A stretch of DNA of 64,000 nucleotides from a candidate division CPR2 bacterium GW2011_GWC2_39_35 (GTDB lineage Bacteria > Patescibacteriota > CPR2): contig LBWX01000001.1 of the NCBI GenBank assembly GCA_000995065.1, positions 223,563-287,562 on the forward strand. The letters run 5' to 3'. Under the pieces are notes generated by a model. The model worked only from the letters and a program-made list of their open reading frames with translations. It was not told the origin of the DNA and searched no databases. Position numbers and translations under genes: made by a program. Positions 2,837 through 32,583 of this stretch are shown here, piece after piece; the first letter of the stretch is position 1, and each line of letters opens with the position of its first letter.

Positions 2837-3973
2837 CTAGTCCTTATTAGACATTTCTTCTGCAGATTCCTGAAGTGCGATCTTGATTTTGTGCACGTAT
2901 TGAAGCGTCTCCTTATAGGGAGGCACTTTGCCGTATTTAACAACGGCTCCCGGGCCAGCATTATAAGCAGCAAGTGCTAAACTTGAATAGCCGAAAGTTT
3001 CAACTTGCTCTGACAAATAGTTAGCAGCAGCATCAAGCTGGATATCCGGACTGTCTTTATAAGCTGACAAGTCATACTTATTCCCATTCGCGTCTTTCAT
3101 GTTCGCGAGTGTACTCGGCATAACTTGACCAAGACCTAATGCTCCTGATCGCGATCTTGCTTTATAATTCCAACTACTCTCCTTTGACACAAGTTGTTCG
3201 AGTAAAGCAGGGGAGACGCCATACCTAACAGCCTTCCTGTTTACTATCTCAGAATAATACTCGTTGTCCGTCTTTGTCTTTAGCTCCAGCAAATAAGTGT
3301 CAATGTCGTAGGCGTATGCCCAGAGCCGATACCAGGGAAAATTCCTAGCCGGATCTACTTTCCGCCCCTTTGGCCTCGCTGCACGACGATGACTTATCAC
3401 GTTACCTCTTGGAACATCATACTTTTGAGCAATCCACGCAGCACTCTTAATTTGTTCGTCAGTATATGGATCGTATCCGTTACCTAAATTAACAAATTCA
3501 ACACCTATAGTGCTAGTGTTATTAAAGCGCGAATTACTAACGTCACCTGCATGATTTGCTTTGTACCAAGGCGGAACAATGACATAGATCGTCCCATCTT
3601 TGTCGATAAGATAATTGCACGAGATCTTGCTTTCGGTCAGCCACTTTTGGGAGGATTTAAGATCGCCGGCAGTATGATGTAACATCATTCTGTCTGGAAC
3701 CTTCCGCCTCATCGCATTAAGATTGCCTGTCTGCCTGATTTCAACATTAAGTTTCTGCTGAAACCTCTTATTTACAGCCATCACAATCCGTGGCTCACGC
3801 ACCTTCTCTTCTGGACCTTGTGCAATATCAGTTATTCCAACCCGATCACCAACTTCTTTAAGCACATCTATTACTACTGAAGCGTCGATCATTGCACTAA
3901 ACCAGATACAAAGCACCAGGGCTACCAAAAGACACTTAAGCAGCTTTTCAGGTATATTCCTAATGTTTTTCAC
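2837..3973 (-). CDS. secreted bifunctional peptidoglycan hydrolase: N-terminal N-acetylmuramoyl-L-alanine amidase (amidase_2/PGRP-like) + C-terminal lytic transglycosylase (SLT) domain
   Basis: Signal/anchor LLKCLLVALVLCIWF; amidase_2-like HHTAG...CNYLIDKDGTIY...HAG...GVEFVN; SLT motifs ESSWNYKARSRSGALGLGQVMPST and AAYNAGPGAV; locally higher G+C than flanks. Confidence 0.7.
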   Translation of the reverse strand: MKNIRNIPEKLLKCLLVALVLCIWFSAMIDASVVIDVLKEVGDRVGITDIAQGPEEKVREPRIVMAVNKRFQQKLNVEIRQTGNLNAMRRKVPDRMMLHHTAGDLKSSQKWLTESKISCNYLIDKDGTIYVIVPPWYKANHAGDVSNSRFNNTSTIGVEFVNLGNGYDPYTDEQIKSAAWIAQKYDVPRGNVISHRRAARPKGRKVDPARNFPWYRLWAYAYDIDTYLLELKTKTDNEYYSEIVNRKAVRYGVSPALLEQLVSKESSWNYKARSRSGALGLGQVMPSTLANMKDANGNKYDLSAYKDSPDIQLDAAANYLSEQVETFGYSSLALAAYNAGPGAVVKYGKVPPYKETLQYVHKIKIALQESAEEMSNKD

Positions 3974-4362
3974 CTCCTCCTAATCACCAAAAAGAACTAT
4001 TTTACTTTTAATGTGCATGCTAGAACTATTTCCAGCAGCCGAAGCGACCTACTCGAGGTGAAGCCAGTAGGCCGTTTCGACGGCTCGAAGATTAAAAACA
4101 AAAAAGACCCGAGCGGGTCAAGTGGTGATACAAAAGAAAATTTGTACAAAAAAATGCGACCGGTTTCACCACTAGCTCCCCGTGACCATAAGGTGACCAA
4201 ATAATAGGTCACGGATCGAAGCTTCCGCTTTATCCTGCGGGATATTTGCATATCCGTAAGGGATAAAATAATTCTAATTTAAAGTTGTTAACACCGCTAT
4301 TTTAACATTTGGTTGTTTATGTGTCAATAGTTTTCCTGAACCATTTCCTGAACCATTCCTGA

Positions 4363-4506
4363 ACCACCCTCACTTTTTTGTCATCCCCGTGAATACTTAG
4401 GATCCAGAAGGCTTGGGGACATAGTGAGCTTCCCGGATTCCCGCCTGCTCGGGAATGACAACTAGCGTTACTTTTCTTGTTTTTTAAAAAGTGAGGGTGG
4501 TTCAGG
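4363..4506. repeat. G+C-rich ~100-nt palindromic element (copy A, minus orientation relative to copy B) nested inside a perfect 18-bp inverted repeat gaaccaccctcactttttt / aaaaagtgagggtggttc followed by T-run
   Basis: Reverse complement of ~4382-4480 aligns at roughly 80% with ~10015-10112 (gtcattcccg..gcgggaatcc..ggaagc..ccaagccttctggatcc..cacggggatgac); termini gtcat...atgac inverted. Confidence 0.7.
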
Positions 4507-9912: not shown

Positions 9913-9947
9913 AAAAATCGCCACGCAAAACTTGATGGCGGTTTTTT
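9913..9947 (+). terminator. probable intrinsic terminator after topA
   Basis: aaaaaaatcgccacgcaaaacttgatggcggtttttt: stem cgcca/tggcg, T-run. Confidence 0.5.
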
Positions 9948-10014
9948 ATTTAGCCAAAAAAATCTGCCAAAAGATCTAAAACACCTACACTTTTTATAAA
10001 TATAAAAGAAGCTC

Positions 10015-10112
10015 CAGTTGTCATTCCCGCGGAGGCGGGAATCCAGGAAGCACGTTGCACTTCCAAGCCTTCTGGATCCCCGTCTTCACGGGGATGACGG
10101 AAAGTGGGGGTG
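10015..10112. repeat. G+C-rich palindromic element, copy B (inverted relative to copy A at 4382-4480)
   Basis: contains hairpins attcccgc-GGAG-gcgggaat and atccccgt-cttc-acggggat; termini gtcattcccg / cggggatgac inverted; generates spurious ORFs 9950..10141(-) and 10018..10239(+). Confidence 0.7.
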
Positions 10113-10126
10113 TTCCAAGCCAAAGA

Positions 10127-10155
10127 TGTTGACAAAGTCAAATCTTAATGCTATA
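10127..10155 (+). promoter_or_regulatory. sigma-70-type promoter (TTGACA-17-TATAAT) for the 10193..14341 operon
   Basis: ttgaca aagtcaaatcttaatgc tataat, ~40 nt upstream of the start codon. Confidence 0.65.
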
Positions 10156-10192
10156 ATTTACTTGTTTATTTTTAAGCCGCTTTGCAAGCGAG

Positions 10193-11212
10193 GTGAAAAT
10201 GTCTGCTACTACCAACAAAGAAGAATTAGATTTGAATAAATTAGCCAGAGAAACTTTAGAGCTTTTAAAGAAAGAGAGAAGCCGAGAAGTTCTCTCGCTT
10301 CGTTTTGGCTTAGAAGTGCCAAAAACAACCCTCGAAAAAATTGGCCAAAGGTATGGCATTACCAGAGAGAGAGTAAGACAAATCGAAAAGGCGGCTCTAA
10401 CCAGGTTGAAAAATAATAATCTGGACAATTCAAATTCTCATAAAGAACTTTTTGATACTATTAAAGACCGTGGCGTAATTTTGCATACCGAAATAGAAAA
10501 AGACTTCGGCGCGCATCAACTAAATGCAATTCGGTTGCTTTTAAATTTATCTAACGAAATCTTAGAGGTCATTGAGGACGACAAAAAACACTCAACATTT
10601 ATACATGCCCAATACTCTCTAAAAGAAATCGAGAGTCTAATTAAACACACTTTAGATATCTTAAAAGAAACCGAAGAAGCAATCCATATAAATAAATTAC
10701 ATCAGAAACTAAAAGACAAATCTCAAATTGATTTATCGGATAATTTAGTCGAGAAGTCATTAAAAATTAGCAAGGATATTATTATTGATGATAGCTATGT
10801 TGGTCTTTCCGTATGGCCGACTATTAATCCTAAGAGCATAAAAGATAAGACATACTACGTTTTAAAAAAGGAAGGTAAGCCTCTTCACTTTTCAGAAATT
10901 GCAAACCGAGTAAGAAGCCTTTCCCAAAAACCTATCACCAAACAGGCAGTACATAACGAACTCATCAGAGATAATCGATTTGTGCTTATTGGTAGGGGAA
11001 TTTACGCACTTTCAGAATGGGGATACAATTCCGGAACAGTTGGAGATATTATTTATGACATCCTTAAAAAAGAGGAAGTTCTCCATAAAAATGATATTAT
11101 AGAAAGAGTACTGGAAAGAAGAATTGTAAAAGAAACTACAATTATCTTAAACCTTCAAAACAAAAACAAATTCAAAAGAGTAGGCAAGGCTACCTACTCC
11201 GTAAAGGAGTAA
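10193..11212 (+). CDS. DNA-binding protein with N-terminal sigma-70 region-4-like HTH and C-terminal HARE-HTH-like winged helix (probable start ATG 10199 after GAGGTG SD)
   Basis: N-term LSLRFGL..TLEKIGQRYGITRERVRQIEKAALTRLKN resembles sigma-70 region 4.2; C-term HFSEIANRV...DNRFVLIGRGIYALSEWGY resembles HARE-HTH (RpoE-delta/ASXL type) ending motif. Confidence 0.55.
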   Translation: MKMSATTNKEELDLNKLARETLELLKKERSREVLSLRFGLEVPKTTLEKIGQRYGITRERVRQIEKAALTRLKNNNLDNSNSHKELFDTIKDRGVILHTEIEKDFGAHQLNAIRLLLNLSNEILEVIEDDKKHSTFIHAQYSLKEIESLIKHTLDILKETEEAIHINKLHQKLKDKSQIDLSDNLVEKSLKISKDIIIDDSYVGLSVWPTINPKSIKDKTYYVLKKEGKPLHFSEIANRVRSLSQKPITKQAVHNELIRDNRFVLIGRGIYALSEWGYNSGTVGDIIYDILKKEEVLHKNDIIERVLERRIVKETTIILNLQNKNKFKRVGKATYSVKE

Positions 11213-11215
11213 CAA

Positions 11216-14200
11216 ATGTCTTTAGAATTAATAGTATCAATCTTTCAGGGAATTTTTAGCGTTCTTGTTTTTGTATTTACTTATACCTGGTGGATAATCG
11301 CCGCCATTTTGGCCTGGGAAACTTACCAGAATTACCGGAAAAAGGGTTGGGTAGAAAACCTTGAACATATGCTGTTAAAAGTGGAAATACCTAAAAATAA
11401 CGATAAAGGCCCCGTAGCGGCCGAAATGATGTTTGCTTCACTTCATGGGATTTTAAAAGACAAAACCGAGCAGCAAAAAGAGGGAAGCATTCAAGAGCAC
11501 ATTTCGTTTGAGATTGTTGCCACCTTAAATTCAATCCAATTTTATATTTGGGTACCGGTACATCTAAGAGATTATTTAGAAGGCCAGCTTTATGCCCAGT
11601 ATCCCTCGGCAGAAATAACAGTCGTAGATGATTATTCAACGGATATCGATATTGATGACGACGGTATTGACGACTGCGTCGCTTCTACCGAACTCGTTCT
11701 AGAAAAAGAAGACCTGCTTCCTATAAAAACTTTTCAGAGCTTTGAAGTCGATCCACTAGCCGGCATCACCAGTGTTTTAAGTAAGCTTGACGATCCTAAA
11801 GAGCAGGTTTGGATTCAAATTCTTGCTAAGCCTCATGATAATTCTTGGCAAACGAGAGCCCAAGAATATACCGACAGCACAAGAACCGGAGGTTCGGGCG
11901 GACTTAGCATTGCTTCAATTATGGGATCCATTAAAAGAGCGCCGATTTCACTTCCAAAAACTTTAATTTCAATGGCCTTAAGAGCTCCTGAACCAGCTGC
12001 CCCGACTACTGCCCCAAAACTTTCGAAGCATGAAGAAGCCGAACTAACAGCCATAGACACTAAGGCTAATAAGCTTGGCTACGACGTCAAAATTAGAATA
12101 ATGTACCTCGCCAAAACGAAAGAAAAAGCGAAGTATCGCCTTCAAGCCGTGGTTGGCAGTTTTAAGCAGTTTAATACCACCCTAAATGGTTTCACTTCCA
12201 CCGGATTAAATGAAGGCAGGGGTCCTTTAGACGAATACCGGGCCCGCTATTTTGACGCTGGTTATCTTCTAAACATCGAGGAGCTAGCCAGCATTTATCA
12301 TCTTCCCCATATCTCCGTAGAGACTCCAAATATCAATTGGGTTTCTTCTAAAAAAGCTGAGCCACCGGCAACCTTACCCGTAGAAGGATCAGCTCCACCG
12401 GACGAACTAACTCTCTTTGCTCAGACAAACTTTAGAGGAGTTAGACAAAAATTTGGCATTAAGATGGATGATCGCCGAAGACATACCTATGTAATAGGTA
12501 AGTCCGGCGTCGGTAAATCGTGGCTTCTTGCCTTACTATCTATTTCGGATATTTACGCCGGTAAAGGCGTCTGTATTATTGATCCTCATGGTGATCTAGC
12601 CGAAAAGGTTATAACCTACGTTCCGGAACATCGCATCAAGGATGTTGTTTACTTTAATCCTTCCGACACCAATTTTCCAATTGGTTTTAATACTATGGAA
12701 TGCCCAAATCCGGACTTTAAAGAAACCATCGCCTCCGGATTCGTATCTATTTTTAAAAAGCAATTCGGGTATAGCTGGGGTCCAAGACTTGAATACGTTC
12801 TAAGATACACGATCTTGGCCCTTTTAGATACTCCGGAGACCACCATGCTTGGTGTTATAAGAATGCTTACCGAAAAAAACTTTAGACAAAAAGTCATTAA
12901 GAACATTAAAGACCCGGTCGTAAAAAACTTTTGGGAAAAAGAATATGCCACTTATAATGACAGGTTTGCCACAGAAGCAGTTGCTCCGATATTAAACAAG
13001 GTTGGTCAGTTTATTGCTTCTCCTCTTATAAGAAACATAGTAGGTCAACCAATAAGCACTTTTGATATCAGAGAAATTATGGATGAGGAAAAAATATTAA
13101 TCATTAATCTTTCTTCCGGAAGAATAGGGGAGGACAACTCAGCCTTGCTCGGTGCTATGATGATAACTAAGATTCAGCTCGCCGCCATGTCGAGAGCAGA
13201 TGTTTCAGAAGAAAAACGAAAAGATTTTTATCTATATGTCGACGAGTTCCAGAACTTCGCCACAGACTCCTTTGCTAAGATATTATCAGAAGCTAGAAAA
13301 TATCGCTTAAACTTAATTGTCGCCAACCAATACATTGCTCAGATGGATGAAACAGTTAGAGACGCTGTTTTTGGAAACGTTGGAACTCTAGTATCTTATA
13401 GAGTTGGTGCTAAAGACGCCACATTCTTAGAAAACGAGTTTAGCGGCATATTTGAGTCACATGACCTAATCAATCTAGATAATCAGCATATCTATCTAAA
13501 AATGCTTATTGATGGCGTTACCAGACAGCCATTTTCGGGCAAAATATTAAACCTGCCGGAAGCCAAACTCGACCTAACAACCCAAATTTTGCAAAACTCA
13601 AGAGAACAGTATACCAAGCCCAAAACCGAGGTCGAAGAAATGATTGCCAAACTAAGCACCCAAGGAGGGCAACCGCAAAACGAAGACGGCGAGGATATTA
13701 GAGAAGAGAGAAAAGATAATAGATACGACAACAGGCCAAACTACAACAACTCGAATAACCCTAAAAGGGATTTTACGCCGCCTGCTGTAAGCGCCGAGAA
13801 CAGAATAAAGAATGCTCCTTTAAATAGACAAACGCCAAGGGATAGAGTGGAACCAGGGCATAGCGACAAATACATTGCAAGAAGTAACCAAGAAAAACCA
13901 CCCATGAAACAACCCGTGAAACATTCGTCAAATTCTTATGTCAAAACAGATCATGCCAATAATATTCATCATGATAAAAGACCAATGGGCCAAAAAAATC
14001 CTAGTGATCGCTCCTCCAATGATCAAAGAAATCAAAAGAAATTAGATGAAGAAAATATCCGTAAAGCAATTAGGGAGGCTTTAAGTAAGAAAGAGCAGAC
14101 GTCAAACCATGAAAACCGCCAGACCGAGGTAAAGGTAAAACCTGCTCATGAGCATAAACAAACCACCGAAGACAAACCAAAACATGAATCACAAAACAAT

Positions 14201-32328: not shown

Positions 32329-32583
32329 TTAACAATTTAATTCCTCTTCCTCAACATCTTCCACCTGTGCCGTGTATGTTTCGCATTCCGCTATTTTAGA
32401 AGCGCCGGTATGAATATGAACATAAATATGTTTGGCAACACAATGAGGATTTGTACCATCTCTGTTATTATATTCACAATCTGTAGCCGAACAGCCTATA
32501 TCGACTCTCTCCTCCATCAATTTTTCACCCCCTCCCTTTTTAATAAAAATAAAAGAAGCGCCGATAGAAATCAACAGCGCCAT
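32329..32583 (-). CDS. small secreted Cys/His-rich protein (signal peptide + ~60-aa mature part)
   Basis: MALLISIGASFIFIK hydrophobic N-term; 5 Cys and HIYVHIHTG; start chosen at internal ATG to avoid overlap with upstream gene. Confidence 0.3.
   Translation of the reverse strand: MALLISIGASFIFIKKGGGEKLMEERVDIGCSATDCEYNNRDGTNPHCVAKHIYVHIHTGASKIAECETYTAQVEDVEEEELNC

Follow-up and report, generated by a model that had tools for sequence, protein, structure and literature searches.

Hairpin repeats of the dRS3/NTS type were first seen in Neisseria and are known across many bacterial phyla (PMC11893778). The Neisseria Transformation Sequence (NTS), defined in 2025 in Nat Commun as CGTCATTCCCGCGMAVGCGGGAATCYRG, includes the dRS3 repeat in its classical form, ATTCCC-N8-GGGAAT, and the same work defined a degenerate "Ssn-related motif" (SRM) (PMC11893778). 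SsnA, a small single-domain GIY-YIG nuclease (cd10448), binds and cuts the NTS hairpin in single-stranded DNA only and on one strand, with a nick site just 5' of the hairpin stem, whereas it does not act on the RNA form of the hairpin (PMC11893778). Cleavage depends on the three nucleotides that precede the palindrome on its 5' side, binding on the cytosine that follows it on the 3' side, and in N. meningitidis the activity of SsnA restricts transformation by incoming ssDNA (PMC11893778). In many phyla ssn genes are commonly flanked by SRMs; where a genome has over 200 SRMs, ssn is present in 81% of cases, which makes this a statistical association and not an absolute one (PMC11893778). That the repeat is spread by the Ssn nuclease in a RAYT-like manner was put forward by the same authors as a suggestion (PMC11893778).

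Other described repeats share parts of this design. Neisserial intergenic mosaic elements (NIMEs) consist of RS segments bracketed by dRS3, and dRS3 also serves as a target of phage or IS110-type integration. Correia elements come with duplicated TA target sites and bear promoters as well as IHF sites. The DNA analyzed here, 64 kb from a bacterium of the CPR2 lineage (Patescibacteria) and referred to throughout as the window, holds two inverted copies (A and B) of a G+C-rich palindromic element that resembles each of these systems to a different degree. As in NIMEs, a short spacer separates inverted dRS3-type hairpins in the manner of mosaic intergenic repeats, but the spacer is unrelated and genome-specific and the elements do not form arrays. 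With REP/REPIN and RAYT systems and BIMEs they have in common hairpin units with a conserved asymmetric 5' head, inverted doublets that form one long hairpin, an extragenic location and apparent copying as doublets; they differ in the sequence of the head and in the partner, which for SRMs is the GIY-YIG protein Ssn in place of a Y1 HUH transposase, and transposition by the Ssn/SRM pair is so far a suggestion. Correia/NEMIS elements and the palindromic elements of Rickettsia and Wolbachia are likewise small palindromic intergenic repeats with spurious ORFs, which can alter the transcription of neighboring genes; unlike Correia elements, those of the window have no duplication, and the adjoining promoters are native and lie outside the element.

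The closest likeness is to the NTS/SRM family, including dRS3 of Neisseria. It extends to the 27-28-nt sequence (two window units are 2 mismatches away from the Neisseria consensus), to the 8-bp G+C-rich stem with a 4-nt loop (the stems in the window measure 8, 8, and 7 bp), to the flanks (5' YGTC and 3' C(C/T)RG), and to an intergenic location, often as inverted pairs, in many phyla. The window case differs in its host, a CPR2 bacterium, and in its low density: about 76 kb contain two doublets, whereas the genomes of the defining study are far richer in repeats (PMC11893778), which counts against an assignment to this family. It also differs in the lack of an ssn gene within the 64-kb window and in the placement of the doublet inside a palindrome of 135-142 nt with outer arms of 14-21 bp, an arrangement not described for the family. 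On balance, we regard it as likely from the sequence comparisons that the cores of both copies are convergent dRS3/NTS-type (SRM) hairpin doublets, which would represent fixed, non-autonomous relics of an Ssn-like spread. The original prediction of a REP-like repeat family was therefore right in kind, its units belonging to the published dRS3/NTS/SRM family.

The two cores, of about 80 nt each, lie in inverted orientation at 4380-4459 (-) in copy A and 10020-10098 (+) in copy B. The reverse complement of the former is 82% identical to the latter (67 of 82 columns), in line with the inverted similarity of some 80% that had first been noticed, and the blocks listed at that time (GTCATTCCCG, GGCGGGAATCC, CCAAGCCTTCTGGATCC, and CACGGGGATGAC) are all present in both copies. 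Three further features proposed by the original prediction were recovered as well: the mutually inverted ends (gtcat...atgac), which read GTCATYCCCG...CGGGRATGAC in both cores; the elevated G+C content, which amounts to 56-61% in the cores vs. 38% in the whole window; and the spurious ORFs, which cross both copies. One of these ORFs, a 61-aa "gene" over copy B, has entered public annotations (JGI and NCBI records). Those running through copy B occupy 9950-10141 (-) and 10018-10239 (+) of the window and 12125-12310 of locus L001, and their peptides include SFPRRRES...LDPRLHGDD and WIPASAGMT. A duplicated gene fragment was excluded as the source of the similarity between A and B.

Both copies stand alone in their surroundings. 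Within the 64-kb window the 17-mer CCAAGCCTTCTGGATCC occurs in copies A and B only (0.13 occurrences expected by chance), and their hairpin patterns match no other site in the 64 kb, with a chance expectation of none. Neither the window nor some 12 kb of additional flank contains a further SRM copy; the notion that only two copies exist thus holds for this stretch and its flanks, but not for the family across bacteria. The component features are collected in Table 1.

Table 1. Features of the two composite elements and of the promoters next to them (positions refer to the window unless another locus is named).
Feature	Position	Strand	Remarks
Sigma-70 promoter TTGACA-17-TAAAAT (neighbor, outside the element)	4299-4327	-	11 of 12 hexamer matches, plus TG
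12-nt tandem repeat TTTCCTGAACCA, 3 copies	4332-4366		TRF score 63; overlaps the end of the copy A outer arm
Copy A outer arm CCTGAACCACCCTCACTTTTT	4358-4378		21 nt, 100% complementary to 4486-4506; homologous to copy B arm 10101-10114
Copy A decayed SRM unit GTCATCCCCGTGAATACTTAGGATCCA	4380-4406	+	GTCAT and 5' half of the stem kept, 3' half gone; no ATCCCCG..CGGGGAT match
Copy A inter-unit spacer, with block CCAAGCCTTC common to copy B	4407-4432		A and B spacers 76% alike; 17-mer in A and B only
Copy A intact NTS/SRM hairpin unit TGTCATTCCCGAGCAGGCGGGAATCCGG	4433-4460	-	2 mismatches to the 28-nt NTS consensus; 7-bp stem
Copy A degenerate extra arm AACTAGCGTTACTTTT	4460-4475		Within the 26-nt inner spacer; homologous copy B stretch 9994-10019
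Copy A outer arm AAAAAGTGAGGGTGGTTCAGG	4486-4506		GTTTTTT comes next on the plus strand
Copy B diverged outer arm AACACCTACACTTT	9980-9993		86% complementary (12 of 14) to 10101-10114; aligns with the copy A arm
Copy B NTS/SRM hairpin unit TGTCATTCCCGCGGAGGCGGGAATCCAG	10019-10046	+	2 mismatches to the NTS consensus; perfect 8-bp stem
Copy B inter-unit spacer	10047-10071		Aligns with the copy A spacer
Copy B SRM hairpin unit CGTCATCCCCGTGAAGACGGGGATCCAG	10072-10099	-	Exact degenerate SRM match (0.12 expected); perfect 8-bp stem
Copy B diverged outer arm AAAGTGGGGGTGTT	10101-10114		Pairs with 9980-9993
Promoter TTGACA-17-TATAAT of the sigma-r4/HARE-HTH gene (neighbor, outside the element)	10129-10157	+	12 of 12 hexamer matches, plus TG
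Promoter TTGACA-17-TGcTATAAT in CPR2 genera	Window 10129-10157; L127 about 9942-9970; L129 about 9944-9972		

Each core is composed of two hairpin units of 27-28 nt in convergent arrangement, with the GTCAT ends facing outward. Two strong 8-bp hairpins had been predicted for each copy; this is correct for copy B, in which both stems are perfect (ATTCCCGC/GCGGGAAT and ATCCCCGT/ACGGGGAT), but not for copy A, which combines one 7-bp stem with a decayed unit. The intact unit of copy A and the first unit of copy B each carry 2 mismatches to the NTS consensus, where no such match is expected by chance, and thereby exceed by one the cut-off of 1 mismatch applied in the defining study (PMC11893778). 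All three intact units possess the flanks that set the orientation of the motif, with YGTC 5' of the palindrome and C immediately 3' of it. Two of the three nevertheless fail the narrow SRM regular expression (PMC11893778) because their loops read GGAG and AGCAG. The third, at 10072-10099, is a stem variant with two compensatory pairs: the C-G variant that it shows at stem pair 6:21 is found in 27 of 121 family units, and its ATCCCC/GGGGAT stem is a common compensated variant in the family. Altogether, four units are present in the 64 kb of the window vs. 0-0.12 expected.

An exact scan for GTCATTCCCGC-N3-8-GCGGGAATCC over one genome per species gave at least 120 loci. The matches listed come from Bacteroidota, Alpha-, Beta-, Gamma-, and Deltaproteobacteria, Chloroflexota, Planctomycetota, and Nitrospirota, and further from Elusimicrobia, several CPR groups, and Neisseria lactamica. 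Among the listed loci, 72 of 86 neighboring unit pairs display the convergent arrangement of the window, with spacers mostly of 6-94 nt. Stem pairs covary across 121 distinct units, in contrast to the lack of compensatory variation that would have refuted the original prediction: 95.5% of cells are paired, six of the eight stem pairs are changed on both sides, and such changes on both sides occur in 59 cells as opposed to 9.7 in shuffles, while controls in which the stem is slid collapse. Ssn-like GIY-YIG ORFs lie immediately next to SRMs in three loci (L042, L093, and L135). The last of these, on metagenome contig Ga0172381_10015153, illustrates the association of ssn with SRMs; its Ssn-like GIY-YIG gene at 111-620 is preceded upstream by an SRM doublet and by arrays of degenerate GGGAATGAC half-sites. 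The spacers of doublets resemble each other more when they come from one genome (0.80) than when the genomes differ (0.54), which is weak but consistent support from sequence likeness for a copying of whole doublets, as in REPINs.

Stable folds and compensatory changes could also be the mark of a small structured regulatory RNA gene or of a cis-regulatory RNA, and one of the copies does lie near a riboswitch-controlled operon. We consider this scarcely plausible, since neither copy has an Rfam match over it at E-values up to 1, no promoter points into the elements, and the promoters nearby point away from them. In addition, the doublets are reverse-complement symmetric, so that both strands fold alike, the same 27-nt unit recurs in unrelated phyla and contexts, and the documented partner SsnA acts on ssDNA and not on the RNA form (PMC11893778). 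The proposal of a structured or regulatory RNA, which was part of the original prediction, is thus not supported.

The doublets are embedded in a larger structure. The perfect inverted repeat seen around copy A is genuine and measures 21 bp, not 18 bp as first stated; it is moreover not peculiar to that copy, for copy B carries a diverged version in which 12 of 14 positions are complementary. The alignment of A and B extends across one arm, the A-rich inner spacer of 26 nt, and the arm on the other side, and the similarity of the flanks has a p-value of about 4e-4 per flank when compared to random window segments. The repeated unit is accordingly a nested palindrome of 142 nt in copy A and 135 nt in copy B, 76% identical overall, in the order outer arm, A-rich spacer, doublet, outer arm; its two inverted copies are found in intergenic DNA that is absent from relatives. 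DNA folds of these composites reach z-scores of -3.4 to -6.2. Copy A had been explained as an element inserted into the loop of a terminator hairpin. Since copy B has the same outer arms and inner spacer, the arms are part of the repeated unit and not the halves of a split terminator; at copy A, the "loop" is 107 nt long and the T-run is antisense to the neighboring genes only, which does not correspond to an intrinsic terminator.

Two smaller repeats accompany copy A. A degenerate third arm at 4460-4475 adjoins the core; it shares 75% identity with 4362-4377 and can pair with 4487-4502 at 75% of positions, so that the core of copy A is flanked by imperfect direct arm repeats in addition to the inverted arms. 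The tandem repeat at 4332-4366 fills the gap between the copy A composite and the -35 box at 4327, and the 9-nt CCTGAACCA at the heart of this tandem repeat is also the tip of the 21-bp outer inverted repeat; it could be a product of slippage or a set of protein-binding sites.

The outer arms are not a trait of the family, as a flanking inverted repeat of at least 10 nt was present in only 4 of 63 doublets elsewhere, and among the collections searched the composite was found only in this genome. When the window was searched for another outer arm, the matches were all weak, with 2 mismatches; a 32-nt match of 81% at 32529-32562 is A/T-rich, has no partner arm, and was judged to be due to chance. 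A metagenome scan for the subfamily spacer (GGGAATCC-N15-25-AAGCCTTCTGGATCC), a pattern that does match the window and loci L001-L004, produced 0 matches in a collection that evidently lacks the host genome. The core with its immediate flanks (AGTT...AAAGTG) was matched by 4 metagenome contigs, none with outer arms and hence at chance level, and a viral scan with the 17-mer yielded one match, in coding sequence, likewise attributed to chance. A protein search with the concatenated translations of the element in all frames, intended to find copies annotated as ORFs, gave 0 matches and was uninformative.

Regarding mobility, searches for GIY-YIG by regular expression, tblastn, and a small HMM found nothing in the window, and the 64 kb together with some 12 kb of flank contain no ssn/GIY-YIG gene; no Y1_Tnp or other transposase was present among the Pfam matches of the genes called in the window and the same flanks. 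No insertion polymorphism was seen either: eight assemblies over the copy A spacer are identical, both sites equal the window sequence in every other assembly that contains them, and the 5.5-kb segment bracketed by the two composites was not observed in inverted arrangement in any assembly. Because every assembly compared is identical across the copies that it contains, the composites appear to be fixed, with no sign of recent or current mobility. The Logan contigs L004 and L005, from two independent short-read assemblies, end at window positions 4483 (in copy A) and 10047 (in copy B), and one Logan contig spans exactly from copy to copy, whereas the longer assemblies compared are identical across the copies; these breaks are likely an assembly effect of the repeat or hairpin, or of k-mers shared with the SRMs of other community members. 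The bracketed segment itself comprises genes for a 65-aa ORF, dprA, an MBL-fold protein (Apyc1-like), an EamA transporter, and topA.

Two kinds of transposition known from other small repeats can be set against these observations. A classical MITE, derived from a DDE-type IS and moved by cut-and-paste with either GTCATYCCCG or the 21-bp arms as terminal inverted repeats, would account for the presence of such repeats at both levels and for small, intergenic elements in two copies; a relative even harbors an rve_3 integrase fragment in the same intergenic spacer. We nevertheless hold this option, which was part of the original prediction, to be very unlikely. Target-site duplications are lacking at both copies in the window and, for lengths of 1-8 nt, were seen in 0-2 of 65 doublets elsewhere at any length, near the permuted expectation. 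The window and its flanks contain no transposase, the composite with outer arms is missing from the collections searched, and each of the "inverted repeats" forms a hairpin whose stem pairs covary, as is expected for ssDNA recognition. As an observation in its own right, the rve_3 fragment occupies 9594-9794 of L131, a CPR2 relative, in the topA/HARE-HTH spacer that holds copy B in the window, which suggests that this spacer is a recurrent landing site for insertions.

REP elements have a GTAG-type head. A REP/REPIN mobilized by RAYT, an IS200/IS605-like Y1 transposase, would fit the architecture, in which a pair of inverted hairpin units around a short spacer folds as one long hairpin, and the likeness of the spacers suggests whole-doublet copying. 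This origin is highly improbable all the same: the called genes of the window and flanks lack a Y1_Tnp domain, the conserved 5' sequence is GTC(A/T) and not of the GTAG type, and the gene that is tied to the motif both statistically and physically encodes a GIY-YIG nuclease. A further reading, in which the nested palindrome of 135-142 nt, with its 21-bp outer arms, degenerate third arm, and SRM doublet, is a distinct composite mobile unit of the CPR that is copied whole by an Ssn-type ssDNA nuclease, seems unlikely to us.

Both composites share the same orientation relative to transcription and are located after the end of a gene and 14-52 nt before a near-consensus promoter. On the side of copy A, the promoter at 4299-4327 (-) drives a c-di-GMP-II riboswitch (4149-4235) together with an amidase/SLT gene. 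The aptamer scores 71 bits on the minus strand against a gathering score of 53.5; downstream of it follow a terminator-like hairpin with a T-run at 4106-4119 (-) and then the gene at 2837-3973 (-), which encodes an Amidase_2 and SLT peptidoglycan hydrolase. Copy B is indeed situated upstream of the -35 box of the sigma-r4/HARE-HTH gene, as had been stated, yet the distance is not 15 nt: its core ends 30 nt before the box and its outer arm 14 nt before. In CPR2 relatives with 55-60% protein identity, synteny is kept and the topA-HARE-HTH spacer is 64-74 nt long, with the same promoter and no element. The element-free relatives retain the same TTGACA-17-TATAAT promoter, hence the sigma-r4/HARE-HTH promoter is native, and the element as a carrier of the promoter is ruled out. 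Across CPR2 genera this promoter, with its extended -10 region (TTGACA-17-TGcTATAAT), is conserved nearly base for base, while the protein is only 58-60% identical.

From this placement it could be supposed that the composites work chiefly on RNA, by terminating or insulating transcription between co-directional genes or, as 3' hairpins, by stabilizing the upstream mRNA. E. coli REPs stabilize upstream mRNA, the position and shared orientation of both copies agree with such a role, the RNA folds of the composites in the sense direction are very stable (roughly -57 to -63 kcal/mol, with z-scores between -5.9 and -7.9), and there is no canonical terminator between the 65-aa gene and copy A. An RNA-level role nonetheless appears unlikely as the main function. 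T-runs follow the hairpin on the antisense strand only and are missing from the transcribed strand, topA already has a hairpin and T-run of its own at about 9917-9948, and the CPR2 relatives manage with their short spacer in the absence of the element. The same orientation of just two copies has a 50% probability by chance, and the conserved asymmetric flanks of the family are determinants of an ssDNA nuclease, not features of a terminator.

Returning to the dRS3/NTS-type doublets, the following scenario could reconcile these findings. The two composites would have been copied as whole units by an Ssn-like kind of spread, and would now adjoin native promoters without supplying them. Decay would be ongoing but slow, visible in copy A in one of its units and in copy B in its outer arms. 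An effect on transcripts, which no observation calls for, would be a by-product of the RNA hairpin formed at the 3' side of the upstream gene, and may concern the stability of the upstream mRNA or read-through.

In summary, the occurrence described here is an ordinary new case of a known hairpin family, in CPR2, and neither a new RNA nor a split terminator. It is a modest extension of the published SRM family into the CPR2 lineage, the hairpin being nearly the same as in Neisseria, and the elements account for G+C-rich islands, for spurious ORFs of the SFPRRRES and IPASAGMT kind, and for apparent "terminators" in a CPR2 genome. If the composite were a mobile unit, it would provide direct genomic evidence for an Ssn/SRM transposition system analogous to RAYT/REPIN, and might have a role in limiting the transformation-driven replacement of the 5.5-kb dprA-topA segment. 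The outer palindrome provides a modest starting point for studying the copying of such repeats. CPR bacteria are thought to depend heavily on DNA uptake; if the host genome contains ssn, they would be a natural place to test the control of incoming ssDNA by Ssn and SRMs.
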